Below are positions 6,181 through 36,017 of a stretch of DNA of 64,000 nt, one piece after another. The notes beneath the pieces are model-generated. The model was not told the origin of the DNA. It ran no database searches and saw only the letters and a program-made list of their open reading frames with translations. The translations under genes and the position numbers were made by a program. Each line of letters starts with the position of its first letter. The stretch's first letter is position 1. Origin of the DNA: an uncultured Candidatus Saccharibacteria bacterium (GTDB lineage: Bacteria > Patescibacteriota > Minisyncoccia > UBA6257 > 1-14-0-10-44-23); NCBI GenBank assembly GCA_964641225.1, contig CAZXKC010000001.1:23268-87267 (forward strand). Direction: 5' to 3'.

Positions 6181-6215
6181 CAGGTAGAACGCCTCGCTGC
6201 GGATTTCGGCTTTTT
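6181..6215 (+). other. Degenerate tRNA-Asn 5'-half-like fragment immediately upstream of the intact tRNA
   Basis: gatagttcaggtagaacgcctcgctg repeats the D arm and the 5' anticodon stem of the adjacent tRNA with a 1-nt deletion, then diverges. Confidence 0.4.
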
Positions 6216-6226
6216 ATTTTTTACAT

Positions 6227-6299
6227 TCCGGAGTAGTTCAGTGGTAGAACGCCTCGCTGTTAACGAGGATGTCGTAGGTTCGATCCCTACCTCCGGAGC
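6227..6299 (+). tRNA. tRNA-Asn (anticodon GTT)
   Basis: Cloverleaf read directly: acceptor tccggag/ctccgga, D arm tagttcagtggtagaac, anticodon stem cctcg/cgagg with loop ctGTTaa, T arm ggttcgatccc. CCA is not encoded. Confidence 0.8.
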
Positions 6300-7768
6300 C
6301 CGATAGTTAAGTCAGCGGTAGAAAGGATGGTATTAAAGGGTTTTCGCAAGGAAAACACTAGCTTTTTGCCGTCTAGCGACGGGTTCTGAAGTAAGAAGTT
6401 CAAAAATTGCCGTTTTTCAGGCACATCAGAACTCTTAAATATCTCAAGTGCCCGTTTTGCTAGGTTGAATATAGTGTTTGCCGTGATGTAGAACTCTTCG
6501 TCAGCATCGGAATGAATACGCATATCAGTAAGCAGTTCGGCTTGGCGGTCCTTGAACTCGCGGAACTTCTTGTCATACATTTCAGCGGTAATACAGCCGT
6601 CCAGCTTGTCATTGTACATTTTGCTGATGCGGTCCTCTATCGTGTCGTATTCTTTTTTCAAGTTGGTCATACTGACCTTGTGAAATGATGCCTCGCTATT
6701 GCCCATAGACCGCAGCCCTTCGGTTATTTCTTTGATACGCTCATCTGGCATCTGAATGTTGCCCAAAATCTCGTAGATGGGTTTCAGGAGCTCGCTTTCA
6801 GGCACATACGCACGCTTACACTGCTTTCGGTAATTAGTGCAGCTGTAGTAAATAAATGTGCGTCCGCTCTTTTTTGTTTTCATTTCAGGGCTGACGCCAC
6901 AGCCACATTTTGCACATTTAATTAGGCCACGGAAAATGAACGGCTTAGCAGCGAATTGAAATGGCTTTTTGTTCCAACTCTTACGTACCTCTTCGCACTT
7001 CTCAAAAAGCTCTCTAGCAATCAGATTGCCGTAGTTATGTGTATTCTCTCGTCCTTTATATCGCATCAGGCCACAGCAGAAAGGGTCTTGCAAGATATGT
7101 GCGACCATACTGATTGATAATGGCGTATCTTGAGCACTTTTCAGGCCGAGCTTAAACATCGCTTTGCGAATGATGTGATGCGAGCTATTACCCGTTGCAT
7201 ACATCTCAAACATTTTTGCAACGAGTGGGCCATCGTGTTCATCTATCTCAATAGTATGCTTGCCATCAACGCTAACAACATTTTTGTATCCTCTAGGAGC
7301 TTTGCTCGGCCATTCGTGATTATCAAACTTCTGCGTTAAGCTACGCTTCACGTCATCTGATAAGCGATTAAGGTACTGCTTAGCAAGAAATACCTTTGCT
7401 TCCCACATAAACATCTGGTTGCCCGTGGCTTCTTTATTGATGAAGAAACCATCTTTGACGAAGTGGATTTCTAGTCCCTCGTCTCGTCGCATCACGTCTA
7501 GGTCTACGGCATCCTTAAAATTGCGGGTAGCTCGGTCTACGTTTTCGCAGAGCAGGACCTTGATATTGTGTTTGCGAATATAGGCGATGACTTCTTCAAA
7601 CTTCTTACGGATTTTTGGGCCAGCACTTTCCGAGAAGCAAAACTCTTTAACTACTTCAAAGCCCTTTTTGGCGGCATACTTTCGCAAACTATCAATCTGG
7701 GCGGGCAGCGAGCGTCCCGTTTCTTCCTGCTCTTTCGTTGATACTCTCGCTAGAATGATTGCTTTCAT
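6287..7768 (-). CDS. Large serine recombinase (resolvase/invertase-type catalytic domain, recombinase domain and zinc ribbon)
   Basis: N-terminal MKAIILARVSTKEQ...GRSLPAQ is the catalytic Ser motif. A long C-terminal extension carries a CxxC...C cluster. The 3' end overlaps the tRNA-Asn 3' end by ~12 nt on the opposite strand. Confidence 0.85.
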   Translation of the reverse strand: MKAIILARVSTKEQEETGRSLPAQIDSLRKYAAKKGFEVVKEFCFSESAGPKIRKKFEEVIAYIRKHNIKVLLCENVDRATRNFKDAVDLDVMRRDEGLEIHFVKDGFFINKEATGNQMFMWEAKVFLAKQYLNRLSDDVKRSLTQKFDNHEWPSKAPRGYKNVVSVDGKHTIEIDEHDGPLVAKMFEMYATGNSSHHIIRKAMFKLGLKSAQDTPLSISMVAHILQDPFCCGLMRYKGRENTHNYGNLIARELFEKCEEVRKSWNKKPFQFAAKPFIFRGLIKCAKCGCGVSPEMKTKKSGRTFIYYSCTNYRKQCKRAYVPESELLKPIYEILGNIQMPDERIKEITEGLRSMGNSEASFHKVSMTNLKKEYDTIEDRISKMYNDKLDGCITAEMYDKKFREFKDRQAELLTDMRIHSDADEEFYITANTIFNLAKRALEIFKSSDVPEKRQFLNFLLQNPSLDGKKLVFSLRKPFNTILSTADLTIGLRR

Positions 7769-7771
7769 AAT

Positions 7772-7948
7772 TTATTTTGTACTGACTTTTTTCAAGAACC
7801 CGTCAAACTCTTTTTTTCCGATACGAAACTCTTTGCCGATTTTATACGCTTTAAGCTTGCCTGCTTTGATATAGCGGTAGATTGTCATCACGTTAACGCG
7901 TAGTTTTGCTGCAAGTTCTTCTGCGAGATAAAAGTCGTGTTTAGTCAT
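7772..7948 (-). CDS. Helix-turn-helix excisionase/AlpA-like DNA-binding protein (58 aa), not in the ORF track because it is under 60 aa
   Basis: Reverse-strand translation gives MTKHDFYLAEELAAKLRVNVMTIYRYIKAGKLKAYKIGKEFRIGKKEFDGFLKKVSTK, a classic HTH_17/excisionase pattern. It lies directly upstream of the recombinase. Confidence 0.55.
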   Translation of the reverse strand: MTKHDFYLAEELAAKLRVNVMTIYRYIKAGKLKAYKIGKEFRIGKKEFDGFLKKVSTK

Positions 7949-8181
7949 AGCTTATTTGGTTTAATTATACTTTACAATGCTTTACAGTGCAAATCTAAGA
8001 AGTGGACAACCGTTTCCTTGCAATTCCCATTTTGATTAACCTAGAGCGTTGCCTGCTATATTCTAACGCTAGCTCTTTTTTCACGCCTTCCATAAAGAAA
8101 TCTACCGTCAAGACCTTCTTAGCTCGTTGTTGTTTTTTGTTCATAGTCGTCAATAATTATTGTTTAATGCTCCCATCCCTT

Positions 8182-9333
8182 CTATGGAGGGTGTCGCCAA
8201 GAGGACGGCGTTTCTATTGGACCAGCTCGTATGCGGAACGGCTTAAAACCATTAAGACTGTTGGCCACCTGCTTTACCCAGCCGTCATAGTTTTTATTTG
8301 AAATATCATCAATGAACTGAAGGTCTTTCGCGATGCGATACCACGTGCGGGTTGCTGCATACTTCTCAACGATTGCCCGCGTCTCTCGTATTCCTTCCTT
8401 GCTTAACGCTCGCAGCCCGACCAGATAGACTGCTTCCCTTGGTTTAATATTTGGTCTGTTTTTGAAAATCCGTTCCAAAGTTTTTTTTGGACTGCTGGCT
8501 ATATCAAACAGGAACATATTTTTGCCCGCTATAAGCTCCTGCCAATAGCTCAGTAGCACCTTCTGGCAAAGGGCCTCGTTGAACACATCCCTAAACGTTG
8601 GATTTTCCTTTAGGCCGAGCTGCTTCAGCACAGCATTGAGCTTTACCTTTTTCGCGAGCCGAACCTCAATCCGTAAAAGCTCTTTGTGCTCGCTCTTCGC
8701 TAGAACATCAAAGAGCGAACGCTGGACTTTATTTTGGTCCTTATCCATCGCTCGCTTCTCAGGCTTCTTGAGGTCTTGCACCTTGTCGTATATCACTAAT
8801 GAATGTGAGTTGGCATAAAACTGTAGCGATTGTCCGTCGTTGCGGAAGCTATCGCGGTTAAGGTCTAACTTCTTACTTACATCAACCTTATTTAATTCTT
8901 TAATAACAAAGGCCGACGTGTAGCCGTTGGTCAGTGGTATATTTTTTGAGGGATGGAATGCGGAGACCGAACCAGCTTCAATGTTCTTTTTCAGCACGTG
9001 TACGCCCATCTCAAAGAGTGCGTGTGTTAAGCACTCAACGACGGCATCAAAGTCGCTCTCTTGGACCTCATCCACGTTGTTGCCAAAGACCATTTTTGCG
9101 ACAGAAAACTCAATTTTGAGCGGTATTTGAATACCGTTTTCTGTCATCCTTTTCATCAGGGTCATTCGTGGCCGATACTTGCCCTTTTTCTTGTCCGAGG
9201 CGGTTGGGTTGTTCATACACTTCACTAGAAAATTACCTGAGCTATTAAGGATGTCGGCGTTAGGAGCAAACATATTCGGCTTAAGGATGCGATATTGGCC
9301 TTTAGGGATTGTGAGGATAACGGTGTCTAGCAT
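8182..9333 (-). CDS. Hypothetical protein (383 aa). Possibly the replication or mobilisation protein of the integrative element.
   Basis: Long ORF in island context next to the recombinase and excisionase. No motif was securely recognised, so the function is inference only. Confidence 0.45.
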   Translation of the reverse strand: MLDTVILTIPKGQYRILKPNMFAPNADILNSSGNFLVKCMNNPTASDKKKGKYRPRMTLMKRMTENGIQIPLKIEFSVAKMVFGNNVDEVQESDFDAVVECLTHALFEMGVHVLKKNIEAGSVSAFHPSKNIPLTNGYTSAFVIKELNKVDVSKKLDLNRDSFRNDGQSLQFYANSHSLVIYDKVQDLKKPEKRAMDKDQNKVQRSLFDVLAKSEHKELLRIEVRLAKKVKLNAVLKQLGLKENPTFRDVFNEALCQKVLLSYWQELIAGKNMFLFDIASSPKKTLERIFKNRPNIKPREAVYLVGLRALSKEGIRETRAIVEKYAATRTWYRIAKDLQFIDDISNKNYDGWVKQVANSLNGFKPFRIRAGPIETPSSWRHPP

Positions 9334-9539
9334 ACGGGTAAGTCATCGTCTGTTCGCTTGTATCGGTCAGGATTGACCCGCTTATCAACCTTTAACGCCA
9401 AAGCAAAGAAGCCGAGCAGGTTGCGGCGTTCATCTTCGGTTAGGTCTTTAACGGACCAATCCGTTGGATTTTTTTCGGGTAGAGCGGACATAAAATAGCC
9501 TGATGGGTTCAGGCTACTGTATGCCTCACTTAAGTTTGC

Positions 9540-10811
9540 TTAATTTTTGACTACGTACTTTGGATTGAGCCGAGCAGAATGCTTCGTAAGCTCAAAGAGA
9601 TTTTCAACTTGCGGGATGTGTAGTTTCACTTTTCGGTTGAACTGATAAATCGCGTTTTTGACTGCCGTGTCATCCACGTCGTCGCCTAAAATCATTTCGC
9701 TAATTTCGCCCAAACTCCAGTCCGAATAAGTATTTTTTGGGTTATCAAAAATGACCCTAAGGACTTCTTTTTGGACCTGTCCCTGTATCCGTATCTTGTG
9801 CTCTTTCGCATCTTGGTCAGTTAAAATCAACATCCCGCTCTGGGACTGAAAACTTAAGTTCAGCTTAATCTCTTCGCTTTCGGCGGTATTTATGGTATTG
9901 CTCGCCATCTTTTCTTGCCCCGTCAGCGAACTCAACGTTATTGGCGTTGAGTGGAACTTCACGTTCCAAAGCTCTTTGTCGTTCCAATTACGCACCTTCA
10001 GCCGTCCCTCTTGCTCCAAATACGAAAGCACTTTTATTACCTCAAAATCTTCATTGGCTAGCGAAGTGAAGGGTATGTTGACGCTACCATCAATAAGCGG
10101 AAGCTCTTTGACAAACTTGTAGAAGTTTTCTAACTGCTTAGAAAAATATGACCTTTTCTTTTTGTAAATGGGTGGTTTGTCAACAAAATCATCGGCAGCA
10201 AACGATGCTAAGAAATCAGCGATTTTTTCGTTGAGCTTTTTTGCTTCGGCATCAATAAAAGTGAGTTCAAACTCAATATGCGGTGCGGCAATGTCAGAGA
10301 TGTTACTCAAGCTTTTAGCTGCTTCGCTTAACGAGGCGAAATCAATTCTGTCTCTCATCCTCGGAAAATCATTTTTGAAATCAAACTTTTTTTCTTTGTC
10401 ATTGATAGCTGCGTCCAATCTTGCCTCAGACATTTTCTTTAAGTCATAAATCTCGCCGAAAACGTACGTATAGTAACCAACATTTTCATCAGTTGGATTT
10501 TCAGTCATCACTGCTTCTCTTACGGCTCGCTCCAATAAATCAGAGAGGTTGATAACGCTGAGCCGTCTTATCTTGCCTATACTAAAAACTTCAATCATAT
10601 CAAAGACCTGATGGAGCACGAGGTGCTCTACTGAGCCGTGGTCATTTGTGTCTGTAATTTCGCTCTTGATTTCATCAATCTTCCAATAATTTCCTTTCAA
10701 AAATTGGTCTAAAGTAAAAACGTTTTGCCCGCGGTAAAAGCCCTCTAGCAAAATGTGCAGGGCCAGCAGGTTCAAATCGCGATTGAAGTAGTCAAAATGG
10801 TCTTCTTCCAT
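9540..10811 (-). CDS. Hypothetical protein (423 aa)
   Basis: Long ORF with an acidic/coiled middle and a possible winged-helix-like C-terminus. No recognisable family. Confidence 0.45.
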   Translation of the reverse strand: MEEDHFDYFNRDLNLLALHILLEGFYRGQNVFTLDQFLKGNYWKIDEIKSEITDTNDHGSVEHLVLHQVFDMIEVFSIGKIRRLSVINLSDLLERAVREAVMTENPTDENVGYYTYVFGEIYDLKKMSEARLDAAINDKEKKFDFKNDFPRMRDRIDFASLSEAAKSLSNISDIAAPHIEFELTFIDAEAKKLNEKIADFLASFAADDFVDKPPIYKKKRSYFSKQLENFYKFVKELPLIDGSVNIPFTSLANEDFEVIKVLSYLEQEGRLKVRNWNDKELWNVKFHSTPITLSSLTGQEKMASNTINTAESEEIKLNLSFQSQSGMLILTDQDAKEHKIRIQGQVQKEVLRVIFDNPKNTYSDWSLGEISEMILGDDVDDTAVKNAIYQFNRKVKLHIPQVENLFELTKHSARLNPKYVVKN

Positions 10812-10920
10812 AGGTCTTATAGCTTACTTTAGTTTACATCCTATGACAATTCAAACGGGTCGCTTATATGACTTTGATTAACAAGAAAAAAGTGCTAAAT
10901 TATATGCACAACTTAATATG

Positions 10921-11100
10921 GCCTAACCCTCGTGGGCAACTGCGAGGTATGGCGTTAGAAACTGTTCAGGTACATTAAGCTCGTCGTCAGAGCACCTGAA
11001 CAGTCGTATTCCGAAAGGGGTACGGGTGGCCGTAAGGTCATCGCTGGCGGCGAGCTTTGTGCTTCGCTGCTTGCAAAGGCATTACAAAACTGTTCAGGTA
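10921..11100 (+). ncRNA. Candidate structured RNA / leader element, copy A, directly upstream of the C5-methyltransferase start codon
   Basis: Multi-hairpin element with GNRA loops: ctcgtgg-GCAA-ctgcgag, cgtattcc-GAAA-ggggtacg and ggcc-GTAA-ggtc, plus a long-range 10-bp stem actgttcagg/cctgaacagt. A paralogous copy at 23766-23900 preserves every helix with compensatory changes. Confidence 0.4.
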
Positions 11101-12098
11101 TGCCCAAAAAAACAAAAGGGCGGTCAAAGCACCGCGTCGTTTCTCTATTTGCAGGTTCAGGCGGTCTTGATTTAGGTTTTCATCAGGCGGGTTTTGATAT
11201 TATTTGGGCGAATGACTACGACCATTGGTCCTGCGAAACGCTCAAGAAAAACTTTCATCATACGGTTGTTGAGAAGAGCGTCGTTGATGTAACCAATGAC
11301 GAAGTGCCTGAATGCGATGTCATTTTGGGCGGTTTTCCTTGTCAGGATTTTTCTATGATTTGGAAGCGTGGCGGGATTACGACCGACCGCGGAAATCTCT
11401 ATAAGCAATTTGTCAGACTGGTGAAAGCCAAGAAGCCAAAACTTTTTATCGGCGAGAATGTCCGAGGTCTGCTGACTGCGAACGGCGGTAAGGCGTTGGA
11501 GCAGATAGTTAAAGATTTTGCCGAGGTCGGCTATGACGTTGAAGTGAACAAGGTGAACTTCGCAGACTATGGAGCTCCGCAACTACGGCAGCGGGTTTTG
11601 ATAATTGGAGTGCGTCGTGATTTGGGACGTAAATATAAGCTGCCACCTGCGACGCATACGCCTGATACTTACGTCTCTGCAAAACAAGCTTTGGCGGGCG
11701 TTGAGAAAGCCCTCTACAACAATGAGCACCTCAACGTGCAACCGAAAACAGTGCAAATGTTGAAGCTCATACCAGCAGGTGGGAACTTCACTTCAATCCC
11801 TAAAAACTCGCCTTATTACGTCAAAGGGATGATTAGCCACGTTTACCGCAGGTTGCACCCAGATAAGCCGTCTACGACGATTATAGCGGGCGGTGGAGGC
11901 GGTACGTGGGGCTATCACTACAAGGAGCATCGGCCTTTAACCAACCGCGAAAGAGCCCGTTTATTTGGTTACCCAGACGATTATATTTTCATCGGCTCTA
12001 CGACCGAGGTACGCCGACAAATCGGCAACTCTGTCCCGACTGCGGGCATACGGCCGATTGCCGAAAGCATCCGTAAGTTCCTAGACGAAACCAATTAA
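11100..12098 (+). CDS. DNA (cytosine-5)-methyltransferase
   Basis: Motif I FAGSGGLDLGF, PCQ motif (GGFPCQDFS) and ENVRGL motif. Confidence 0.9.
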   Translation: MPKKTKGRSKHRVVSLFAGSGGLDLGFHQAGFDIIWANDYDHWSCETLKKNFHHTVVEKSVVDVTNDEVPECDVILGGFPCQDFSMIWKRGGITTDRGNLYKQFVRLVKAKKPKLFIGENVRGLLTANGGKALEQIVKDFAEVGYDVEVNKVNFADYGAPQLRQRVLIIGVRRDLGRKYKLPPATHTPDTYVSAKQALAGVEKALYNNEHLNVQPKTVQMLKLIPAGGNFTSIPKNSPYYVKGMISHVYRRLHPDKPSTTIIAGGGGGTWGYHYKEHRPLTNRERARLFGYPDDYIFIGSTTEVRRQIGNSVPTAGIRPIAESIRKFLDETN

Positions 12099-12099
12099 A

Positions 12100-13119
12100 A
12101 TGATTTATTCAAACGATAAACATTTTGGTGGGCCGATGATGGAAACCGTGAAGCGTGAGATGCAGCACTCAAGCAATGTTGCGATTGCCAGCGGGTACGT
12201 TTCAGGTGATGTACTCGGTCAGTTTGAAAATGATTTTTATCGCATTGCTGAAAGCGGAGGTACTGTGAAGCTTTTGGTTGGAATGGCCTTCTACGAAGGG
12301 CTTACGGGCAAAAACTTACAACGACTTCAGACGATAGAAAACCGACTACGTACAACGAACGGTCAGAGCGGTATATTCGTATGTTACTCGCGACCATTCC
12401 ACGGAAAAATCTACAGGTTCAAAAATGGGGGCGACTTTTCAACCTATGTCGGCTCTTCTAACTTTTCGCGTAGCGGACTGTCTGAAAATCTTGAGTGCAC
12501 GGCCGAGGTCAAAGACACCGAAACAGAAGCGGGTGTTGAGGGTTATCTTGATTTCCTTTTTGCCCCTGAAAATGCCGTCTCGGTCCTGAAGGCGGACATT
12601 ACCGTACACGGGTCAAAAGAGTACCTTGAAAGGGTTTCACTACGGACGCTGGATGACCTGCAAAAGTACGACCCGAAAACGATTGATAAGAAGACGCTGC
12701 CAGAGTTTGATTATCCGCTTTCTCGCATCGTTGGCTCTGAAAAATCAAGCTTGAATGTTTATTTCGGCAAAGGGCGTTGGGCTCGTAGTACGGGCAAGGT
12801 TGCCCCGCGACCGTGGTACGAGGTTGAGCTCATCGCGTTAAAAGCGATGACAGAAAACCCTTTGTATCCAAAGGGCGATTTTAAGGCGTTTACTGACGAC
12901 GGGTATGTTATCCCAATGCGGACCAGTGGCGACTACTTTAAGAACATTCGGTCCAAAGGAAACCTACAAATCCTCGGTCAGTGGATTAAGGGCAAGCTTC
13001 AAAAAGCTAACGCTCTCATTCCTCTGACCCCTGTTACGCAGGAAACTTTGGACAAATACGGCAACGACACAATCCGTTTCTATAAAATACGCGATGGCGA
13101 GTATTATGTTGAGTTCTAA
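12100..13119 (+). CDS. PLD-family (HKD nuclease, NgoFVII-like) restriction endonuclease, cognate to the upstream methyltransferase
   Basis: HKD motif FHGKIYRF...YVGSSNFSRSG. Starts 2 nt after the methyltransferase stop. Confidence 0.65.
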   Translation: MIYSNDKHFGGPMMETVKREMQHSSNVAIASGYVSGDVLGQFENDFYRIAESGGTVKLLVGMAFYEGLTGKNLQRLQTIENRLRTTNGQSGIFVCYSRPFHGKIYRFKNGGDFSTYVGSSNFSRSGLSENLECTAEVKDTETEAGVEGYLDFLFAPENAVSVLKADITVHGSKEYLERVSLRTLDDLQKYDPKTIDKKTLPEFDYPLSRIVGSEKSSLNVYFGKGRWARSTGKVAPRPWYEVELIALKAMTENPLYPKGDFKAFTDDGYVIPMRTSGDYFKNIRSKGNLQILGQWIKGKLQKANALIPLTPVTQETLDKYGNDTIRFYKIRDGEYYVEF

Positions 13120-13130
13120 AATCTTGAGCT

Positions 13131-13319
13131 ATGATTTCTGAAAAAGCATTGGCAGAATATAAGGCAATTTATCGCAAGGAGTACGGCAAGGACATTTCAG
13201 ACGCCGAGGCGTTAGAGCAAGCCACGAACCTACTGAACTTAATGAACGTAGTTTATAGACCAGTAAAAAAGGAGTGGCTGACAGAGCTTGATGAAAAAGA
13301 AAAAGGCAAAGCAAAGTGA
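13131..13319 (+). CDS. Small hypothetical protein (62 aa)
   Basis: ORF only. Lys/Glu-rich. Confidence 0.3.
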   Translation: MISEKALAEYKAIYRKEYGKDISDAEALEQATNLLNLMNVVYRPVKKEWLTELDEKEKGKAK

Positions 13320-13475
13320 GTTAAAAATCATCTACGCGGAAGCCGAAGATATTTCCAGCGAAGAGGCACAGCGTAGGGTAGACGCAGCTTTTGACATTCT
13401 ATTTGAGGAGGTCCTTAAGCATAGGCATTAGTTTGCCTGAACGCTTTATATGCTGGTACACTTCAGCTAGATAAT

Positions 13476-13901
13476 ATGCTTAATTTCGGCGAAAAAGTTG
13501 AAGGCGTTGAGTATCGTGAGTTGCCCTGTGCTCGTGCTGTTATTCGTAATGACGAAGGCAAGTTTGCCTTTGTAGAAGTGAACGGGCAATACTTCTTGCT
13601 CGGTGGCGGGATGGAAAAAGACGAGACGCCAGAGCAAACGATTATCCGCGAATGTCTTGAAGAAGCAGGTGCTAGGGTTACCATTAGCCGAAAAATTGGA
13701 ACAGCTGGTGATTATCTATTCGCAAAAAAGGAGCAGGCGTATTTTCACAAAGTCGGCGAGTTTTTTGAAGCGAAAATAGAAGCGATAGTCCAAGATGGCG
13801 TTGAGACTGACCATAAGCTCGTATGGAGCACGCTGGAAGCAGCGAGGCCTTTTATTAAACAAAAAAGTCAGGAGTGGGCAGTTGAGCAACTTACTAAATA
13901 A
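13476..13901 (+). CDS. NUDIX hydrolase
   Basis: Nudix box GGGMEKDETPEQTIIRECLEEAG. Confidence 0.8.
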   Translation: MLNFGEKVEGVEYRELPCARAVIRNDEGKFAFVEVNGQYFLLGGGMEKDETPEQTIIRECLEEAGARVTISRKIGTAGDYLFAKKEQAYFHKVGEFFEAKIEAIVQDGVETDHKLVWSTLEAARPFIKQKSQEWAVEQLTK

Positions 13902-13904
13902 TTT

Positions 13905-14594: not shown

Positions 14595-14610
14595 CACATC
14601 TAAACCAGTT

Positions 14611-15348: not shown

Positions 15349-15476
15349 CCAACCCGCCTATCCTTTCGGAAGAGCCCGAGGGCTCTTATCAGCGGGTTGG
15401 AACCTTTACTAGGAGTATACCTTATTTTCGCCAGAGAAGCAATCATTGTGTAAAAGGTCTATACTAATATAAACGT

Positions 15477-15716: not shown

Positions 15717-15740
15717 CTAGGAGAGAAAAGTGATACGTCA

Positions 15741-26878: not shown

Positions 26879-26880
26879 TT

Positions 26881-27438: not shown

Positions 27439-27456
27439 GATTTACATATTACTTAT

Positions 27457-28044: not shown

Positions 28045-28048
28045 ATAA

Positions 28049-29011: not shown

Positions 29012-29588
29012 GCCAGGCGTTAACAAAGGTCTTTTTTGATACTGTAAATTTCGGTCCGACAAGCGGATCGTGTAAATAGACGTAATCTTTGTTTGCATCG
29101 AGTACTACGACTTGATGCAGACTGAACCCTGTTAAACCGCGTAGGCTTCGTGAATCAAGTACGACCGCACAAACTTTGTTTTCCGCGAGTGCGTTCGTAA
29201 GCTGCTCGTATGTTGGTTTCTCTCGGTGATGCAGGAAGTTTTTATGCTTTATGACTTCTTTGATTTGTTCGGGATAGACAGTAATATCTTTTGCGTTCTT
29301 GATATAAAAATTAAATTCATTATCTGAAACTGATTTTCGTAAACCTTCTGTGCCTTTTTCGGCCCAAAGCTTGTAATCAATGAGCTCGTATTCTTCAATC
29401 TTGATCCCACGATCCATAATCCATTTCCAAAACTTAAAAGCCCAGACTACGTAATTGGGTTGCCAGTCTGCAATTTTTTTCATCTCTTCCGAAGTTACTT
29501 CAGGAAAGAAGTATTTTGCCACCATTGTGTAACAGGCAAGAGCACAAGCTCTGTCGTCGATTTGTTTTTCGTAGGGAATTTGAAGCAT
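28968..29588 (-). CDS. Papain-like (C39-like) cysteine peptidase family protein
   Basis: Q...C (QIDDRACALACY) near the N-terminus and His/Asp in the C-terminal half (SLHQVVVLD, YLHDP). Tentative. Confidence 0.45.
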   Translation of the reverse strand: MLQIPYEKQIDDRACALACYTMVAKYFFPEVTSEEMKKIADWQPNYVVWAFKFWKWIMDRGIKIEEYELIDYKLWAEKGTEGLRKSVSDNEFNFYIKNAKDITVYPEQIKEVIKHKNFLHHREKPTYEQLTNALAENKVCAVVLDSRSLRGLTGFSLHQVVVLDANKDYVYLHDPLVGPKFTVSKKTFVNAWLTVVAQPELTIYSK

Positions 29589-29591
29589 TTA

Positions 29592-30155
29592 CTAAATCAG
29601 ATTTGCTAACAATTCTGGAAATTGATCGGTCTTCATGCTTCCAAGAGTGAAGTGTTTTTTTCCTTTAAATTCTTGGAATTTGGCATTCTTTATTTTCGAT
29701 CTAAGCGCTTCAACGCTTTTCAGCACATCAGCATAGTCATCGGTCGAATACATGATTGTAAGCCCTTCTGTTTTTGCAACCAGATTTTCGTCTATTTCAA
29801 ATTTGAAAAAGTTGGGATCAATCATATGTTCTGGGTCAAGCCATGGGGCTACCAAAACAACCCTCCCAACTTTTACATTGTTTTCGCTCAAGTAGCGCAC
29901 GAGAAAACCGCCGCCACAGCTATGTCCTACAAGCATGGTGTTTTCATTGAGATCAAATCTCTCAAGCATCTTTTTCCATGCTTCATAGTTTGGCTGATAG
30001 AAACCGGGCATTTCCGGAGCTTGCGCTTCGATGCCTTTCAAGAGGAGCTGTCTTTGAATCCATGCTATCCAATGATCATTGGACGCTGCTGGGCGAGCGG
30101 CATCAAAGTATTCAGCCTTATCATTATAGCCGTGGATGATGATTGCTGTTTTCAT
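29592..30155 (-). CDS. Alpha/beta-hydrolase (YdeN/RBBP9-like serine hydrolase)
   Basis: Nucleophile elbow GHSCG and size of ~185 aa. Confidence 0.65.
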   Translation of the reverse strand: MKTAIIIHGYNDKAEYFDAARPAASNDHWIAWIQRQLLLKGIEAQAPEMPGFYQPNYEAWKKMLERFDLNENTMLVGHSCGGGFLVRYLSENNVKVGRVVLVAPWLDPEHMIDPNFFKFEIDENLVAKTEGLTIMYSTDDYADVLKSVEALRSKIKNAKFQEFKGKKHFTLGSMKTDQFPELLANLI

Positions 30156-30490
30156 GTCTTTTTTAAAAATTCTATCTTGTTACCGTCTGGGTCAAGGATT
30201 GCAAAGTTTTTACCCCAGCTTTCTTCAGTTATTTCTTTATATATAGGTACACCCTTACTTCTTAAAGATTTATAGAGAGTATCGACATCATCAACTTCAA
30301 TGATAACGGTCTGATGGCCAGGGATCTCTCTTTCGTGTTCTTTCAGTTTTATACCTAGAAGAGCCTCTCCGATTTTAAAAGCTAGAAATTTTTCGTCTCC
30401 AAAAGCGAGCTCCCAGTTCATGGTTTCTCGATAGAATTTTCCAATCGAATCTACATTGTTCGTGTAGAAGATGCCGTAAGCAAGTTTCAT
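30152..30490 (-). CDS. Glyoxalase/bleomycin-resistance (VOC) family protein
   Basis: betaalphabetabetabeta modules with metal-ligand His and Glu (GHQTVIIEVDDVD...FAILDPDGNKIEF). The internal Met at 30490 is preferred over the ORF start at 30622, which would run into the palindromic recombinase-flank region. Confidence 0.6.
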   Translation of the reverse strand: MKLAYGIFYTNNVDSIGKFYRETMNWELAFGDEKFLAFKIGEALLGIKLKEHEREIPGHQTVIIEVDDVDTLYKSLRSKGVPIYKEITEESWGKNFAILDPDGNKIEFLKKT

Positions 30491-30659
30491 GAGTAAAGTA
30501 TGACTGAATTCAATGGAATTGCAAAAATGTCTTTCTGTGTACCATTTGTGCCATTTCCCGTATAATCCGGTTGATCTGAAGCGACCCGTTTCTATCCAAT
30601 TAATCGACTTCAGGGATCCCAAGGATCCTTATGGGGCCTAGGCGCCTAAGGTTCTGAAC

Positions 30660-32258
30660 CTATACGGGGAGCCTAGTGACAAAATTCGAGTAACTTTTAG
30701 CTAAGACCCTTTTATCCATGGGCTTCTTAAGAGGTTCTAACCTTGCGTGTATTCGTTTTACCTCTTTAGCCGCCTTTTCGATCAATAAAAGTGGCGCAGC
30801 CACATGAATGCTCAATTTATTATCTTTTAGTAAGAGGTTCGAACCTAGTACGAAAACAATATTCCGTTTTTCCCTAAGTGTTGCGCTCGCGTAGCGTTTC
30901 GGGGCGCTCTCTGCAAAAGTGAAAACCTGCTCAGCTTTTTCTAGCCAGTTGTCTACGCGGCCATCAGTATCTTTTAATAATTCCTGTAAACGAACCTTCT
31001 CTTTTGAGAATTCCGATTTTTTACGCGCAAACTCCTCTTCGTTGAGCTCTCCCGCAGCTCGCATATCTATCAATGCATCTATCCGTTGTACGCAGGCGTT
31101 GTAATCGCGCTGGAGATTAGCCAGAATCTTATTCCGGTCCTCGACTTCGAACCTGCTTTCAGTCTTTAATTGATCGATTGCCCATTCTTTGAACTCTGGT
31201 GGGATTTCTATGGTGCCCAAAATGGCATTAATTTGAGACTCTAAGTCTTCTTGTCGGATATTCTTTTGTGAGCAAGCACGGTTTTTCTTTTTGGTGCAGT
31301 GGTAATAGGTGTACTGATGAACATTGCCATTTTTTTGGGTCTTAATCTTTTTTTCGGCGGTAATCATGGAATTGCACTCTGCGCAATGAATGAGGCCAGT
31401 ATAAGCGAACTCTTTAGTGTGTGGGCGCTGCTTGCCCTTGTCGCCGAGGATAACTTGAATTTTTTCGTATTCATCTTCAGTGATCATTGCCTCGTGTTGC
31501 CCCTTGTACCAATTACCACTATTTTTTGGAAATTCAAATGAGCCGTAATAAAAAGGGTCATTAAACATTCTGTAAATGTTACTCTCCGAAATTTTATTGC
31601 CAAGTCTGGAATGAAGTCCCCATTCGCTCGTGGCGATTTTTAAAATTTTAGGGGCGGTGTATTGGCCGGTCAACATTAAATCGAACATCTTACGAACCAA
31701 GTCGAATTTTTCAGGGTCTTTGATAATCTCTTTTTCGCCCTTTCGTTTAAAGGGATGATTCATGTATCCAAGGCTCGCAGGGGCAGGGTACCAACCTCGT
31801 TCTGCCTTTGCTCGTAATCCTCGTTTAGTATTAACACTTAAATCACGAATAAACTGGTTCGCCATACCAAACTCAACGCTCATCATTAGAACATTGTCGC
31901 CAGGATAATAACTTCGCTCAAATGTCTGGATGTGTTGGATAGAGCCTTGCTGCAACATCCAGCTGATCCGCCCGCCGTCTATAGGGTTGCGTGCTAACCG
32001 GTCGAGCTTCCAGCAGATAATGCCTTGTGCTTTGCCGCCTTGGACCGCATTAAGCATTTCATCGAAAACAGGCCGCCCAGGCTCTTTGGCGGATTGAGCT
32101 TCTGAATAGACCTTAAGAATCTCTAAGTCGCGTTGTTTGGCTAGTCTTGTCAGCTCATCGATTTGAGAATCGATTGAGGCGACTTGCTTATCCTCGCTCT
32201 CTGACGATTTCCGAGCGTATAGAAAGTACTTGATATCGCCTTGTTTAACAGGTGCCAT
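30660..32258 (-). CDS. Large serine recombinase
   Basis: YARKSSESEDKQVASIDSQ catalytic motif, a recombinase domain, zinc-ribbon cysteines and a coiled-coil C-terminus. Confidence 0.85.
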   Translation of the reverse strand: MAPVKQGDIKYFLYARKSSESEDKQVASIDSQIDELTRLAKQRDLEILKVYSEAQSAKEPGRPVFDEMLNAVQGGKAQGIICWKLDRLARNPIDGGRISWMLQQGSIQHIQTFERSYYPGDNVLMMSVEFGMANQFIRDLSVNTKRGLRAKAERGWYPAPASLGYMNHPFKRKGEKEIIKDPEKFDLVRKMFDLMLTGQYTAPKILKIATSEWGLHSRLGNKISESNIYRMFNDPFYYGSFEFPKNSGNWYKGQHEAMITEDEYEKIQVILGDKGKQRPHTKEFAYTGLIHCAECNSMITAEKKIKTQKNGNVHQYTYYHCTKKKNRACSQKNIRQEDLESQINAILGTIEIPPEFKEWAIDQLKTESRFEVEDRNKILANLQRDYNACVQRIDALIDMRAAGELNEEEFARKKSEFSKEKVRLQELLKDTDGRVDNWLEKAEQVFTFAESAPKRYASATLREKRNIVFVLGSNLLLKDNKLSIHVAAPLLLIEKAAKEVKRIHARLEPLKKPMDKRVLAKSYSNFVTRLPV

Positions 32259-32406
32259 ATGCCTTAATTATACCTCCATTCTCTTTAGGGACCTTTGAAA
32301 TTAGCTGAACAGGGTTTACGTACAAAATTCTATTAATTTCCATGGTTTTCCATGATTTTTGGTCAGAATCCAATAGCCTAAAACCTTAGCATTCCTTAAC
32401 ATCTTC

Positions 32407-32628
32407 TTATGTTTTTAGGGGTAGTATCCTCGCTAGTTCATCTTGGACAGATTCCAAGGCCTTGGACATTCTTTGCCAATCAAGATGCGAGCCAATCTTT
32501 CTTGCATAAGCATCACCATAGCCCGCCTTAAGGGCAGACCGCCGAAGATTACTATAGGTATAGGCACTTTTATCCAGGTAGTAGGCGATGAATCGTATTT
32601 GCCGAACGAATTGTTGATTTGAAGTCAT
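32407..32628 (-). CDS. Small hypothetical protein (73 aa), possible DNA-binding accessory protein of the recombinase
   Basis: ORF only. Position is analogous to the excisionase of island 1. Confidence 0.3.
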   Translation of the reverse strand: MTSNQQFVRQIRFIAYYLDKSAYTYSNLRRSALKAGYGDAYARKIGSHLDWQRMSKALESVQDELARILPLKT

Positions 32629-32751
32629 ATAACTTTATAAGATAATTTCCGCATAAAATTACTTTCTGATATTCACTGTTAGTACGCTGTTATGCAGTTA
32701 AGCATATTTTTTAACGAGTCGAAAAATACACCAATAAATATCAGCAGGAAA

Positions 32752-33336
32752 TTAAGGGCTGTTATTCTTCCGGGCCCTTTCCTTCAAGAGGCGAATTGCC
32801 TCTGAGTCCCTCCAGGGATATAAAGATTCTTCATTCTTTAAAGTTTCTTTCTCTTTCTTTAAAGGTTCTTTAGAGTCGGCGGCTCGTTCGGTAGGCCGAA
32901 CACTTTGAGTACGAAAAAGTCCTGCTTTCATCTTTTTGAAATCATCGTTTAGTTCGGCTATCCGAACGCCTTGTTCGGTAGAGTGGACACTTCGTTCGGC
33001 AGATTGAACGGCTTGTTCGAGTTTCTTGATACTTTTGATATAGAAAATCTCAGGATAGGGGATGCCAAATTGCGTTCGGCTGTACTGCCTTAACCCACCA
33101 TTTTCTACCATTTTCTTACGAACTTCGGAGAGCTTACCCGTAGACCAGCCTGGCAGAAATTGTTCTTTAATCTCACGGATGGAGATATCTGATTTCCCAA
33201 AATTGACATGATCCTGGTCCCAATCACAATTTCCGCGATAAACCATTAAAAGGCGGTACTCCTGGTCCGTTAAGTTCTTGTCCTTCTCGAAATACTTTCT
33301 CAAAAAGTGGAAACTACCTTTCATTTTCATACTCAT
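32752..33336 (-). CDS. Hypothetical protein (194 aa)
   Basis: ORF only. Confidence 0.4.
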   Translation of the reverse strand: MSMKMKGSFHFLRKYFEKDKNLTDQEYRLLMVYRGNCDWDQDHVNFGKSDISIREIKEQFLPGWSTGKLSEVRKKMVENGGLRQYSRTQFGIPYPEIFYIKSIKKLEQAVQSAERSVHSTEQGVRIAELNDDFKKMKAGLFRTQSVRPTERAADSKEPLKKEKETLKNEESLYPWRDSEAIRLLKERARKNNSP

Positions 33337-33507
33337 AGTTACTGCCTGTTATTTGCTGGTTTTTAGTGGATTGGGGGCATATATCAATCGGACTAGCTCA
33401 ACTAGTCGCAGACCCTTTTCTGTCGCCTCTTGGGCGCTAATATCAACCCCAAAACGGGCTTTATAAAGCTCTTGGAAACGTTTTATTTGGGTTTCGGCGA
33501 GTTGCAT

Positions 33508-33783
33508 TTATTCGTTGTATAAACGAGCTTTAATTGCCTTCAGGGAAGCAAAATACGCCTGCGGCGAGACTCGCAAAGAACCATCCCAAAAGCCCTCTAT
33601 AAGGGCGTCTAAGCCCGCCGTTCGTTTGAATACAAAGTAAGCACGCCCGTGGCCGTCTGGCTTATCGATGCTCCAAAGAGGAACGAATAGATTTAGGGTT
33701 GCCGATAGGGGTAGATCGCTGCTGCGGTATAGGTTTTCTTCGGGAACGATTTCTGTTTTTATACTCATAAATTTAAAAGCCAT
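33508..33783 (-). CDS. Hypothetical protein (91 aa)
   Basis: ORF only. Confidence 0.35.
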   Translation of the reverse strand: MAFKFMSIKTEIVPEENLYRSSDLPLSATLNLFVPLWSIDKPDGHGRAYFVFKRTAGLDALIEGFWDGSLRVSPQAYFASLKAIKARLYNE

Positions 33784-33828
33784 AGCTCTTCTGCTATGAC
33801 CTTATACTCCGAACCAAAATAGCCTATC

Positions 33829-34629
33829 TCAAGATTTAGACCCGAATCTCTTTCTATAGCGGCTTCTCGTATTTTGAATTTTTTTTCGCCTTTTTTTCTC
33901 AATAGGGCCGAAATTAGTACCTCTGATTTCGCCGAAAATCTTCTCCTGCTTTTCCCAATCAGAGAGTTTGTCAGTGTTCGTATCAAGCGCAAATAGCTTA
34001 CCAGCAATATTGATATTTTTTAGTGGGTAGAATCTTGCCCTCCCAAAATAAAAAGTTCTTGCACGCTCAATAAACTTCCATCCTTTTTTAATATCATCTA
34101 GCGAGGTGTCGTTGAAAATTTGCAGAGATAAACCCATCTTATCATCTGTCCAAATAGTAAAATTCTGGCTATCTAAATTTTCTCTGGGATCAATAAAATC
34201 GTGGGCGCCTATGCCAAGATGCTCTAATTGAGCATTGGCTTGAGCAAACGAAAAAATATGGTGAAAGACCAAAGAATCAATTTGCTGCTCCCAATATTTT
34301 ATCGGTTTCAATTCGTATTTTTTAACGATCGATAAAATTGTAGGGCGTATATCGGGATTCTTATCTTTTGCCCTATGATGATTGATTATTATCGGCCATA
34401 CTTCCTTTGCTTCTTCTACGCGCTTTCGCGGATACTTTTCTCTATAGGCACTTATTTCTTTGTCTACTTCCATTGCTCCGATATGCAATTCTTTAAATTT
34501 TTTCCGCACAGAAACAATGTCTTGTCGAAAATTTGGATTAGCTAATAACAATCTCATTTTTTGACCAATCTTTTTATTGACAATTTTTGCTTCTAAATCT
34601 GCGGTTTTTCTATCATCCTTCATACTCAT
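33829..34629 (-). CDS. Hypothetical protein (266 aa)
   Basis: ORF only. Basic C-terminus. Confidence 0.4.
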   Translation of the reverse strand: MSMKDDRKTADLEAKIVNKKIGQKMRLLLANPNFRQDIVSVRKKFKELHIGAMEVDKEISAYREKYPRKRVEEAKEVWPIIINHHRAKDKNPDIRPTILSIVKKYELKPIKYWEQQIDSLVFHHIFSFAQANAQLEHLGIGAHDFIDPRENLDSQNFTIWTDDKMGLSLQIFNDTSLDDIKKGWKFIERARTFYFGRARFYPLKNINIAGKLFALDTNTDKLSDWEKQEKIFGEIRGTNFGPIEKKRRKKIQNTRSRYRKRFGSKS

Positions 34630-34692
34630 TTCTCATAAGCCTAGCGCCAATCCCTAGCTTTCTCAAGCAGAAAAGAATATGGTGAGAGCAAC

Positions 34693-35475
34693 ATGCCTGA
34701 CCCGCGCGAATTGGTTATATATACTGACGGTTCAGCTCTACAGAACCCTGGTGGTCCAGGCGGTATAGCAGGAGTAGTTGAATTTCCTGAAAAATTTGCC
34801 ACCGAACCCAAAATCATTTTTCAGGAAGGATACGAAACGACAACGAATAATCGTATGGAGTTGTTAGGAGTTATTAAATCATTGCAATATGCAGCTACTC
34901 GGGCGCCTGCGTTTTCACCTATGCGTATTATTATTGTCACCGACTCAGACTACGTATATGGCAACTTAAATAGAGCCTTTGTCTGGAAAAAGCAGAAGTG
35001 GGTTAACGCGGATGGTAGGCCAATCGAAAATCACGACCTATGGGAAAAACTCTTACAAGTTCGCGCCAAAACTAGCGCAACGATTTCTTGGCAAAAAGGT
35101 AAAACTTCTGCGATTTTGAAAATGGTTGATAAGGCAGCGAAAGCAGCAGTAAAAATGGCGATATTAAAGACCGACTCTGGCTATAAAGGCGGGAAAGTCG
35201 CCCCCTCAAAGAATCACGGAGGGACCGCTTCAATGTTCTCACTACCACAAAAAAACGCTGTAGTTAGACTCTATCGCAAGCAGTATTCTGGAAAAGGTAT
35301 GTACAAAGTTTTTTTCGATTTTTACCGTGAGGAGGAATCACGCTACGATGGAAAGTATTATGCCTATATCAGCGACAAAAAACTCAGCGAGCTGCATCGC
35401 CAGCATCGCTTCCGAGTCACCTTCGTTAATAACCAAAAATACCCCGTCATTCAAGATATTGAACCTCTCTTGTAA
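34693..35475 (+). CDS. RNase H (type 1) domain protein with a ~110-aa C-terminal extension
   Basis: VIYTDGSA...ETTTNNRMELLGVIKSL...IIVTDSDYV gives the DEDD catalytic residues in RNase HI order. Confidence 0.7.
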   Translation: MPDPRELVIYTDGSALQNPGGPGGIAGVVEFPEKFATEPKIIFQEGYETTTNNRMELLGVIKSLQYAATRAPAFSPMRIIIVTDSDYVYGNLNRAFVWKKQKWVNADGRPIENHDLWEKLLQVRAKTSATISWQKGKTSAILKMVDKAAKAAVKMAILKTDSGYKGGKVAPSKNHGGTASMFSLPQKNAVVRLYRKQYSGKGMYKVFFDFYREEESRYDGKYYAYISDKKLSELHRQHRFRVTFVNNQKYPVIQDIEPLL

Positions 35476-35575
35476 TCGTGTCTCCTGAGCGAGTATTGGT
35501 TCGCGCCAATATCACTCGCCTTACAAGGGATTTGGTTGTATATTCAAAGTGATAAGAAGCTTAAATATTGTTTTT

Positions 35576-35950
35576 ATGGATAGAGAATTACAAAAATTAA
35601 TACTCGAAATTATTGCTGCAAATAATGGGATTGCAGAATGGAAGCATATCCGTGATAAGGTGTTAACGAGGAAATGGCGTAATGTCTCAGAACAAGAAAG
35701 AGGAGTTGCTAAGGTAACTATTAAACACCAGATGGACCTCATGGAGGGAGAAGGTGTCGTCATGCGTAAAGAACAAATACCTGATATTTATTACATTATG
35801 ACATCTTCGGGGCATAGAATTTTATGGGGTTTAATCCAAAGGAGCTGGTATTTTATTATTTTCAATAAGGAGCATAATGTTTTTTCTGTAATAGCCCTCG
35901 CGGTAAGCATTATTTCTTTAGTCGTTGGGTTCATTGCTTTATACCGTTGA
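35576..35950 (+). CDS. Winged-helix-like N-terminal domain plus two C-terminal TM helices, hypothetical
   Basis: ORF. Hydrophobic C-terminus (VFSVIALAVSIISLVVGFIALY). Confidence 0.35.
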   Translation: MDRELQKLILEIIAANNGIAEWKHIRDKVLTRKWRNVSEQERGVAKVTIKHQMDLMEGEGVVMRKEQIPDIYYIMTSSGHRILWGLIQRSWYFIIFNKEHNVFSVIALAVSIISLVVGFIALYR

Positions 35951-36017
35951 TTTTTAGTTCTCTTCAGCCGAGCACTTATTCACTCATAATCAATTATGAG
36001 TGTGCTAAAGTGAATAG

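Follow-up and report, generated by a model that had tools for sequence, protein, structure and literature searches.

How do accessory genes come to be stacked beside a single tRNA gene by serine integrases, the main tools for the insertion of large DNA, which are regarded as not using tRNA genes? The question is raised by a 64,000-nt stretch of contig CAZXKC010000001.1 (assembly GCA_964641225.1, positions 23,268 to 87,267 of the forward strand) from an uncultured Candidatus Saccharibacteria bacterium, the whole of which is here called the window. The locus is probably a tRNA-Asn-anchored array of integrative, likely plasmid-like elements, mobilised by large serine recombinases (LSRs) of two related Patescibacteria clades, represented by the genes LSR1 and LSR3; judged by its junction sequences, the array appears to span roughly 40 kb from the tRNA gene, at least to position 46716.

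Three minus-strand open reading frames (ORFs) carry resolvase, Recombinase and Zn_ribbon_recom domains, all above the Pfam gathering scores for PF00239, PF07508 and PF13408; these are the three genes that a first-pass annotation of this DNA had named as recombinases with catalytic and zinc-ribbon domains. R8, S10 and further invariant residues (the catalytic serine and arginines) align in all three. The recombinases and the tRNA gene are placed as follows:

6227-6298, plus strand: intact tRNA-Asn(GTT) (ARAGORN, Rfam; junction-pattern match 6277-6299)
6287-7768, minus strand: LSR1, 493 aa, integrated tail-less form ending ..DLTIGLRR* (Pfam, alignment)
21769-23121, minus strand: LSR2, 450 aa (Pfam)
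30660-32258, minus strand: LSR3, 532 aa, tail-less form ending ..YSNFVTRLPV* (Pfam)

ARAGORN, which finds no other tRNA in the 64 kb, places the gene at 6226-6301, Rfam at 6227-6298 (72 bits). LSR1 is 26% identical to each of the other two recombinases. LSR2 and LSR3, taken in the first pass for clear paralogs, share 39% identity over 350 aa; each has closer relatives elsewhere (63% and over 90%), and they belong to different subfamilies.

Read in reverse complement, the acceptor 3' strand of the tRNA supplies the stop codon and the last three sense codons of LSR1 (L, R, R of ..GLRR*); the resulting antisense overlap of 3' ends, correctly described at the outset, covers 12 nt of the mature tRNA-Asn (6287-6298). 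LSR1 has 1396 homologs at E<1e-10. Among 49 related metagenome loci that were fetched, 36 were scanned for tRNAs, and 24 of these have a convergent tRNA that overlaps the LSR stop or begins there: Asn 17 times, Gln four times, and Lys, His and Leu once each. For LSR3, 5595 homologs were found, mostly at 55-66% identity, and in its family the LSR 3' end overlaps tRNA-Asn in loci L140-142 and tRNA-Gln in L143/144 (ARAGORN). The 3' ends of rpoD and dnaX, considered as the targets of this family, were rejected, a tRNA sitting between the LSR and those genes. The recombinase of L150 clusters with LSR3 at 90% identity, and across window 30688-33778 the two loci have 79% of their nucleotides in common. 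This LSR ends ..NRLRR*, its frame continuing into antisense tRNA sequence, namely a tRNA-Asn 3' half with a single base changed relative to that of the window along the ~44 nt to the anticodon loop. When the C-termini of the 120 best homologs per family are sorted with a regex classifier, antisense T-loop peptides (..DSN.., e.g. ..GQDSNLQPS) are found in 47 of 120 in the LSR1 family and in the same number in the LSR3 family. LSR1 and LSR3 thus stand for two large Patescibacteria clades whose 3' ends systematically overlap convergent tRNAs, mostly tRNA-Asn. The remark made in the first pass that a tRNA is an unusual target for an LSR stands, with these loci (24 of 36 in the LSR1 family; L140-L144 and L150 among LSR3 relatives) on one side and, on the other, a 2020 survey that found t(m)RNA use in only 14 of 297 serine-integrase islands and called it previously unreported and in need of proof (PMC7192596). 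Two very large natural clades with the T arm and acceptor end as attB, and with a clear rule for the spacing, would offer many candidate enzymes with a conserved, predictable target.

Many LSR1-family contigs terminate 70-115 nt past the LSR stop, and assemblies therefore break at the tRNA; the arrays explain why metagenome assemblies are frequently interrupted at these tRNAs. In L082-L096 and L101, many contigs stop within ~100 nt past the LSR stop or begin exactly at the far-end junction (position 2 in L101, position 15 in L094), which fits assembly breaks from repeats, or from the coexistence of integrated and excised elements within the population. Because intron-bearing tRNAs are missed by ARAGORN, tRNA scans undercount the adjacency of LSRs and tRNAs. 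The tRNA at the inner LSR of L147 (18118-18373), one of those missed, holds an Rfam Intron_gpI match of 64.9 bits; the tRNA-Asn of L150 (11640-11715) is interrupted directly after the anticodon, probably likewise by an intron.

The other boundaries of the array resemble the tRNA 3' end in a specific way. All share the alignment GGTTC(T/G)… spacer … GGAGC(C/A), and the pattern GGTTCKRW-N9-17-GGAGC matches the 64 kb seven times, always on the plus strand, against 0.09 expected; a looser pattern returns the same seven sites:

6277 (match start), plus strand: tRNA site, spacing 18 nt
18616-18644, plus strand: J1, spacing 23 nt
30650-30673, plus strand: J2, spacing 18 nt
44031-44059, plus strand: J3, spacing 23 nt
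45023-45051, plus strand: J4, spacing 23 nt
46058-46086, plus strand: J4b, spacing 23 nt
46688-46716, plus strand: J5, spacing 23 nt

No P arms beyond these seven sites were found in the window by nhmmer or a Hamming scan. Aligning the boundaries in search of shared half-sites, as the first-pass annotation had recommended, therefore succeeds for the junctions, which have their sequences in common, and gives nothing at the LSR2 3' end; the three islands that it had drawn, each bounded by a recombinase and the last ending at 36017, do not coincide with these positions.

Measured from GGTTC to GGAGC, 13 of the 14 tRNA-Asn genes next to LSRs have a spacing of 18 nt; it is 23 nt in the attP of L146 and L151, in the P arm of L150 and in window J1, J3, J4, J4b and J5. 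In the integrase of a Listeria phage, the motif of the zinc-ribbon domain (ZD) lies 5 bp nearer the centre in attB than in attP (PMC3783163), and 18 against 23 nt is the same offset. Since the spacing fits this shift, the T loop very probably serves as ZD site in the B arm. The T arm (GGTTCGATCC from 6277) together with GGAGCC (6295-6300) would, by its sequence, be the B-type half of attL; GGAGCC corresponds to G70-C75 of tRNA-Asn and is unvarying across the tRNA-Asn genes adjoining these LSRs. From the spacing geometry, the crossover probably falls within GGAG, and is bracketed to GGAGCC. Only ~6 nt, GGAGC(C), are common to the junctions, with no long direct repeat, and no second copy of the tRNA 3' end acting as a boundary was found in the window (27-mer and 14-mer searches, up to 3 mismatches). 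A 12-mer at 35661, taken up as such a copy, was rejected: it lies inside a coding region and has no extension.

What the 23-nt sites are is seen from a minority of LSR1 and LSR3 homologs that are longer and end in a conserved C-terminal tail, of class A (..(L)P.L..FRTxDW..EL..) or, in the LSR3 family, of class B (..LLRL.D.(V/I)RTC..). Among the top matches the classifier counts 4 tails in the LSR1 family (roughly eight by eye) and 23 in the LSR3 family; the FRTxDW motif ends P0099 and P0102, also P0028 and P0095, with a looser version in P0023. Regexes for the tail motifs match only the junctions of the window, with 0 matches in 200 shuffles. Read in the LSR1 frame on the minus strand, J1 gives ..GL and then the displaced tail PLLNKFRTLDWKHIREELEFSGLLRLRQLMPLKR*, which tblastn matches to the tails of P0099, P0102, P0154 and P0220. 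J3, joined to LSR3, gives ..YSNFVTRLRLMKEIRTCLIR*, a family-typical class-B C-terminus comparable to the LSR3-family tails LLRLLDDVRTCLM and similar. By its sequence, the AGAAC of the tail's R-T codons is very probably the P-arm mimic of the T loop's GGTTC.

Tail-form recombinases are found on circular contigs: L146 (9.56 kb, 30-nt terminal overlap, with a Rep-like gene across the contig ends) and L152 (9.73 kb, 141-nt overlap) each carry one and hold no tRNA; a second sample yielded the L152 element again, as L153. Because these circular contigs have the tail and lack the tRNA, the free form would have the tailed recombinase, and integration would shift the P arm that codes for the tail to the opposite end of the element. 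Reconstruction yields …AACTTGTTCAATAGAGGGAGCCCGATAGTTAAGTC… for the attP of the LSR1 element (U1), …GATCCCTACCTCCGGAGCCAATGTTTCTTGTG… for the site left by its excision, and …CTCCTTCATCAGCCGGAGCCTAGTGACAAAATTC… for the attP of the LSR3 element (U3). The LSR frame runs on across the reconstructed attP into the conserved tail, and the only residues that integration would exchange are those after the last known LSR domain. Among 11 distinct class-A tails, differences fall most often on the third codon position (694), then on the first (554) and second (359), and the codons of the invariant L, P, R, T and W vary at the third position; this pattern indicates what looks like a protein-level constraint on the tail beyond the DNA motif AGAAC. 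An attachment site in the recombinase's own gene, with only the tail swapped, in a bacterial serine recombinase makes the idea of an integration-state-dependent recombinase directly testable.

That the tRNA-adjacent LSRs are domesticated host genes, or owe their adjacency to other integrases, with GGTTC…GGAGC being ordinary intergenic repeats or terminators, is scarcely credible. The LSR3 clade is indeed unusually conserved (55-66% identity) and abundant in Patescibacteria, but the cargo is wholly different between close relatives, circular copies exist, several different tRNAs are used, and the repeats share both reading frame and homology with the C-terminal tails of free-form LSRs; moreover, no tyrosine recombinase (Phage_integrase family) is present among the ~70 window ORFs scanned with Pfam, the tRNA-adjacent gene being an LSR.

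For mobile elements that use the tRNA as attB, the cycle would be the following. In the free circle, the LSR gene would contain attP within its 3' end: the P' arm would consist of the codons directly before the crossover, the (G/L/W)L codons would be the reverse complement of the tRNA's GGAGCC, with the crossover inside them, and the P arm would code for a C-terminal tail of 11-40 aa in which the invariant R-T codons imitate the T loop. On integration, the element would provide the last few tRNA nucleotides, so that the tRNA remains intact, and the LSR gene would come to be convergent with it and to overlap it; the integrated LSR would shed its tail, which would stay in attR at the far end of the element. 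Later elements would enter the same site and form a head-to-tail chain, whose internal junctions would consist of P arm, core and the neighbour's P'; old units would have lost their recombinase, or never had one and moved in trans.

In the window, the unit next to the tRNA is the element of LSR1:

about 6295-18644: U1, the whole unit, 12.3 kb, with LSR1, HTH_17, Rep-like backbone, restriction-modification pair and six miscellaneous enzymes
7772-7948, minus strand: helix-turn-helix (HTH) gene HTH_17, excisionase/MerR-like, 58 aa (PF12728, E 3e-11)
8182-9333, minus strand: Rep-like protein (weak Phage_CRI match, Pfam E 3e-4)
9327-9491, minus strand: 54-aa ORF of the backbone
9540-10811, minus strand: 423-aa backbone protein of unknown function
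11100-18538, plus strand: cargo of C5 methylase and NgoFVII-type endonuclease, NUDIX, RibD_C, DUF3800, AAA kinase, TehB-type methyltransferase and APH kinase (Pfam)
18535-18644, minus strand: J1, attR of U1, with P arm GGTTCTAAAC…, 23-nt spacing and core GGAGCC (pattern match, homologous blocks)

The 58-aa HTH_17 gene, which the first pass had picked out, is conserved in 23 related loci and is, by position and conservation, a candidate directionality factor or regulator. The backbone (8182-10811) has 67-70% identical homologs in L086-L088. In blastn against the closest LSR1-type loci, a 77-nt block at window 18567-18643 is also found at the far end of L086, and blocks of the J1 type recur at the far ends of L094, L095 and L099; related LSR1-type elements measure 8.9-10.2 kb, in agreement with the size of U1. 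The LSR1 element thus ends at ~18.64 kb and not at 21.77 kb, where the first of the proposed islands had been made to end, and the AT-rich ABC-3C block (18674-21739) lies outside it. Within the U1 cargo, a 62-aa ORF (13131-13319) is 37-43% identical to a small backbone ORF of LSR3-type elements (L140/L141, L143/L144), which hints at module exchange between the two types of element. A 33-nt direct repeat, 88% identical, occurs at 10921-10953, upstream of the C5 methylase gene, and at 23768-23800, at the start of a tRNA_anti-like gene; it forms an 8-bp hairpin with a GCAA loop, its copies differ by compensatory changes (CCTCG..CGAGG vs CCGCG..CGCGG), and it was not found in any of the 149 fetched loci.

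The next unit holds LSR2:

18645 to ~30670: U2, the whole unit, with stub, ABC-3C, LSR2 module and six enzymes
18645-18686, minus strand: short LSR-C-terminus-like stub (..ASFIETGRIHKKHW), a P'-type half-site right of J1 (tblastn, E 0.003)
18674-21739, plus strand: ABC-3C defence system of SMEK/CTD12 effector, MC8 middle component and DUF2326 ABC ATPase (Pfam)
21769-26265, minus strand: phage-derived module of LSR2, 144-aa membrane protein, tRNA_anti-like OB protein (on the plus strand), TerS-like HTH and ParB-N6/N4 methylase (Pfam; PHROGs for TerS)
26537-30622: S51 peptidase, MBL hydrolase, zinc alcohol dehydrogenase (Zn-ADH), C39 peptidase, serine hydrolase and glyoxalase (Pfam)

LSR2 had been read as the boundary of an island of its own, within an anatomy of three islands (6287-21768, 21769-30659 and 30660-36017) and with LSR2 and LSR3 as local paralogs. 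In its favour, all three LSRs exist, share one strand and are accompanied by accessory genes on the 5' side, and just 29 nt separate the LSR2 stop from where the preceding gene ends; this anatomy is nonetheless very unlikely. The cognate P arm and tail of LSR1 lie at 18535-18644 and not at 21.7 kb, no junction motif is present near 21740-21770, nor at either end of the LSR2 module, which is embedded in U2, and the P arm of LSR3 is found at 44031-44059, where it matches that of the close element in L150. The LSR2 clade lacks the C-terminal segment that bears the attachment site in LSR1 and LSR3 (alignment, C-terminus classes); its relatives, of the same ~450-aa length, are found on IMG/VR contigs, and synteny with the IMG/VR loci L131-L139 is confined to 21757-26262, comprising LSR2, the TerS-like HTH and the ParB-methylase. 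LSR2 is therefore a separate phage-derived module or remnant nested in U2, bounding nothing detectable. As a prophage it is at most a remnant: where structural, packaging and lysis genes would mark one, only the TerS-like HTH and the ParB-methylase stand beside LSR2. The ABC-3C block, a complete three-gene system at 32-37% GC, is the most AT-rich block of the region. Right of J1, ~35 nt of the stub are conserved by alignment with a similar stub in L145, whose stub-led unit has an Abi_C gene in place of ABC-3C.

The element of LSR3 follows:

~30670-44059: U3, the whole unit, 13.4 kb, with LSR3, four small backbone ORFs, RNase H-domain protein and 2543-aa SpvB/RHS/LamG protein
30650-30673, plus strand: J2, GGTTCTGAACCTATACGGGGAGCC, abutting the LSR3 3' end, 18-nt spacing (pattern match, alignment)
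32407-34629, minus strand: backbone ORFs of 73 aa, 194 aa, 91 aa (DUF5659) and 266 aa, co-directional with LSR3 (Pfam)
34693-43917, plus strand: cargo between the LSR3 backbone and J3, of RNase H-domain protein, 133-aa ORF, 2543-aa SpvB/FG-GAP/RHS/LamG protein and small membrane ORF (Pfam)
44014-44059, plus strand: J3, attR of U3, with P arm GGTTCTAATCTCCTTCATCAGCC and GGAGCC, coding ..WLRLMKEIRTCLIR* on the minus strand (pattern match, repeat family)

The P arm of J3 is near-identical to that of L150 (GGTTCTAATCTGTTCTATCAGCTGGAGC), and the backbone module recurs in L140, L143, L147 and L150. A query with LSR3 against viral contigs found no relatives. The LSR3 element takes in the 2543-aa RHS gene and ends at ~44.06 kb, instead of stopping at 36017 as its island had been drawn, and three recombinase-less units lie beyond it. 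The 2543-aa protein (36018-43649) resembles toxin-complex or polymorphic-toxin proteins, and the small ORF at 43666-43917 is a possible immunity gene. At the near end, ARAGORN and Rfam find no tRNA upstream of J2, which may be what is left of a tRNA 3' end, or else a P arm whose spacer has become shorter.

The three units beyond J3 are much smaller:

44060-45051, plus strand: U4, an aldo/keto reductase gene (44093-44980) and P arm J4 (45006-45051) (Pfam, 46-nt repeat family)
45052-46086, plus strand: U5, a DUF1905 protein, a small ORF, a 123-aa membrane ORF and junction J4b, tail-A-like (LPWASNLRT) (Pfam, pattern match)
46087-46716, plus strand: U6, one GC-rich ORF (46109-46594, phrog_26039) and P arm J5 (46671-46716) (PHROGs, repeat family)

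None of them holds a recombinase; each opens with promoter-like sequence and closes with a P arm, and J3, J4 and J5 form a 46-nt repeat family, 78-91% identical. The ORF of U6 belongs to a phage family of unknown function (phrog_26039, E 1.6e-27), and GC content is 0.529 over 46001-47000 against ~0.45 nearby; this ORF is clearly of foreign origin and forms a unit by itself, with a junction on either side. Right of J5 lies an LSR3-like C-terminal stub, or P'-type arm, GGAGCAATGTTGAAC, to be compared with GGAGCAACGTTGGAC of L140, and the array may once have extended past J5. Low-stringency tblastn for fragments of LSR pseudogenes returned mostly noise in the window; a cluster at 36.45-36.58 kb was rejected as a pseudogene, being a weak 19-aa match inside the RHS gene.

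How such units arise can be read in two ways. U4-U6 (44060-46716), and perhaps U2, have close to an even chance of being decayed complete elements, no longer independently mobile, in which internal deletions took the recombinase and backbone: genomic islands commonly decay, LSR-C-terminus-like stubs lie right of J1 and J5, and recombinase-less units are seen only within arrays. Three successive units, however, keep an intact P arm and a promoter-like start with no backbone whatever, similar units of ~1 kb are found in L087 and L150, and the J1 stub is shared with L145 over the length of a half-site (~35 nt), which suggests a retained functional site rather than a random deletion end. It is possible, if doubtful, that the small units are instead recombinase-less cassettes with an attP-like site, integrated in trans by a resident LSR3-type enzyme in the manner of pseudo-SCC or integron cassettes (SCC, staphylococcal cassette chromosome). 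With the P arm of the LSR3 element, those of J4 and J5 share 78-91% identity, each unit when circularised would bear P arm, core and P' stub and thus an attP, one cassette is of foreign composition (GC 0.529, 46001-47000), and mini-units recur in other loci; yet no cassette was found as a circle, or in identical form in two contexts, and the evidence is all architectural.

Tandem arrays of the same kind are present in L099, L087, L145, L147-149 and L150. In L099, the 3' end of the second LSR is fused to the P arm of the tRNA-proximal element, and homology breaks ~10 nt into the tRNA. In L147-149, from several samples, an LSR3-type element has its LSR tail supplied by a neighbouring LSR1-like element, which itself abuts the tRNA holding the group I intron; L087 and L150 have one mini-unit each, of ~1-1.2 kb, between two junctions. 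Because such arrays are found in L099, L147-149, L087 and L150, it is a general habit of these elements to accrete at one tRNA, in mixtures of both LSR clades and recombinase-less units. Repeated site-specific accretion at a single locus, as the first-pass annotation had proposed, is thus supported (by the 24 of 36 tRNA-adjacent loci, the arrays elsewhere and the shared junctions), although not with the anatomy that it had assigned. The arrays show how the tiny genomes of the candidate phyla radiation (CPR) gain defence (restriction-modification, ABC-3C), an RHS-type toxin and odd enzymes. One may go further and suppose, tentatively and as a rather unlikely generalisation, that Patescibacteria have a widespread tRNA-anchored serine-recombinase platform for gene capture, in which the LSR gene spans its own attP and is tailed in the episome and tail-less when integrated, and in which occupied sites stay receptive, so that full elements and single-gene cassettes accrue in ordered arrays. 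If so, the two LSR forms may be an inherent switch by which directionality or stability follows the state of integration, and the system would be a serine-recombinase analogue of integrons or SCC islands.

Several points weigh against an LSR-built array at this tRNA. Canonical LSRs do not recombine attP with attL or attR, which leaves the build-up of the array unexplained; the spacing of J2 is B-type (tRNA-like) and not P-type, contrary to what a simple chain model would lead one to expect; the match behind the LSR stub right of J1 is short and weak (E 0.003); the right-hand half-sites (P', B') are only weakly symmetrical with the left ones, and no convincing inverted motif is seen in them by eye. 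The conservation of the tail is partly confounded with that of the DNA half-site. The circular forms (L146, L152/L153) are related elements, with none seen of the window's own, and there is no closely related empty site (GatB ~55% identical at best), so that the window's own attB and attP are reconstructions. Finally, the check for novelty, which found no account of these CPR clades or of LSRs with attP in their own gene, covered literature in open-access text only.

The array is preceded by the host genes gyrB, nusG, rplK, tmk, gatB and a DUF5654 gene, and by one more piece of tRNA:

6176-6200, plus strand: degenerate 5' fragment of tRNA-Asn, copying positions 8-34 with one indel (sequence reading and alignment)

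The fragment, first placed at 6181-6215, is real at these corrected coordinates; it stops at G34 of the anticodon, and L084 and L085 have an analogous partial 5' copy ~135 nt upstream of an intact tRNA-Asn. It is not accounted for by LSR chemistry with a crossover at the 3' end, and could have been left behind when an intron was gained or lost, or by a different integration system; intron-bearing tRNA-Asn genes are present in this phylum (PMC13011429). An Rfam-type scan of 6080-6225 and of the region left of LSR3 finds no significant known RNA beyond tRNA-Asn itself. GatB of the window reaches at best ~55% identity to GTDB species representatives, the top matches being Patescibacteria metagenome-assembled genomes; because of this distance, the host is a poorly sampled CPR bacterium for which there is no empty-site comparator. 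In the synteny search for an empty site, related genomes match the left flank only (gyrB-nusG-L11-tmk-gatB, ~50% identity), and the right side of the window has no match in them; an exact-protein look-up of a left-flank gene returns only a 2.4-kb contig, ending in the tRNA repeat.

Compared with known systems, the enzymes are those of LSR elements and phages (Listeria A118/LI, Bxb1, phiC31), with which they share Resolvase, Recombinase and Zn-ribbon domains plus coiled coil, a recombinase gene at one end of the element, and short att sites with the motif 5 bp further out in attP than in attB (PMC3783163). Unlike in these, the target is a tRNA 3' end, attP lies within the recombinase ORF, so that integration alters the C-terminus, and occupied sites are apparently re-used. 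Tyrosine-integrase tRNA islands (Islander/TIGER; PMC7192596) likewise integrate at a tRNA 3' end that the element restores, keep the integrase gene next to the tRNA and form tandem arrays at one tRNA; the enzyme family here is unrelated, however, and in place of their long direct repeat, typically of 15 bp or more, ~6 nt (GGAGCC) are shared at the window locus. An att site in the recombinase's own gene is also known from archaeal viruses and plasmids, whose SSV-type 'suicidal' integrases are tyrosine recombinases and are reported to be confined to archaea (PMC8371274); SSV-type integration splits the gene and separates essential parts of the enzyme, whereas the serine recombinase here drops only an 11-40-aa tail and keeps its known domains. 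In the integration-dependent immunity of BPs-type mycobacteriophages, attP lies in a gene, attB is a tRNA, and integration replaces the 3' end of the gene, so that, as here, the prophage-encoded product differs from the virally encoded one (Broussard et al. 2013; PMC9262239); there the gene is a repressor that loses an ssrA-like degradation tag and the enzyme a tyrosine integrase, whereas here the gene is the serine recombinase itself. No integron integrase (IntI) was found in the window, and the cassette ends are LSR P arms, not attC.

The system of the window is thus one of LSR integrative elements, set apart by the tRNA target, by attP inside the recombinase ORF and by the swap of the C-terminus. 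In SCC elements (SCCmec, pseudo-SCC and composite islands of staphylococci and enterococci), Ccr LSRs integrate at the 3' end of rlmH/orfX. As here, insertion is LSR-driven, orientation-specific and at the 3' end of a conserved gene that is left intact, tandem composites are split by short repeated integration-site sequences and include recombinase-less units, and the cargo combines accessory and defence genes. In contrast to SCC, the target here is a tRNA and no rlmH is present at the locus, a single LSR stands in place of the CcrA/CcrB pair, att lies within the LSR coding sequence, and the hosts are Patescibacteria. The window array thus appears to work most like SCC composite islands, a resemblance that is one of architecture only.

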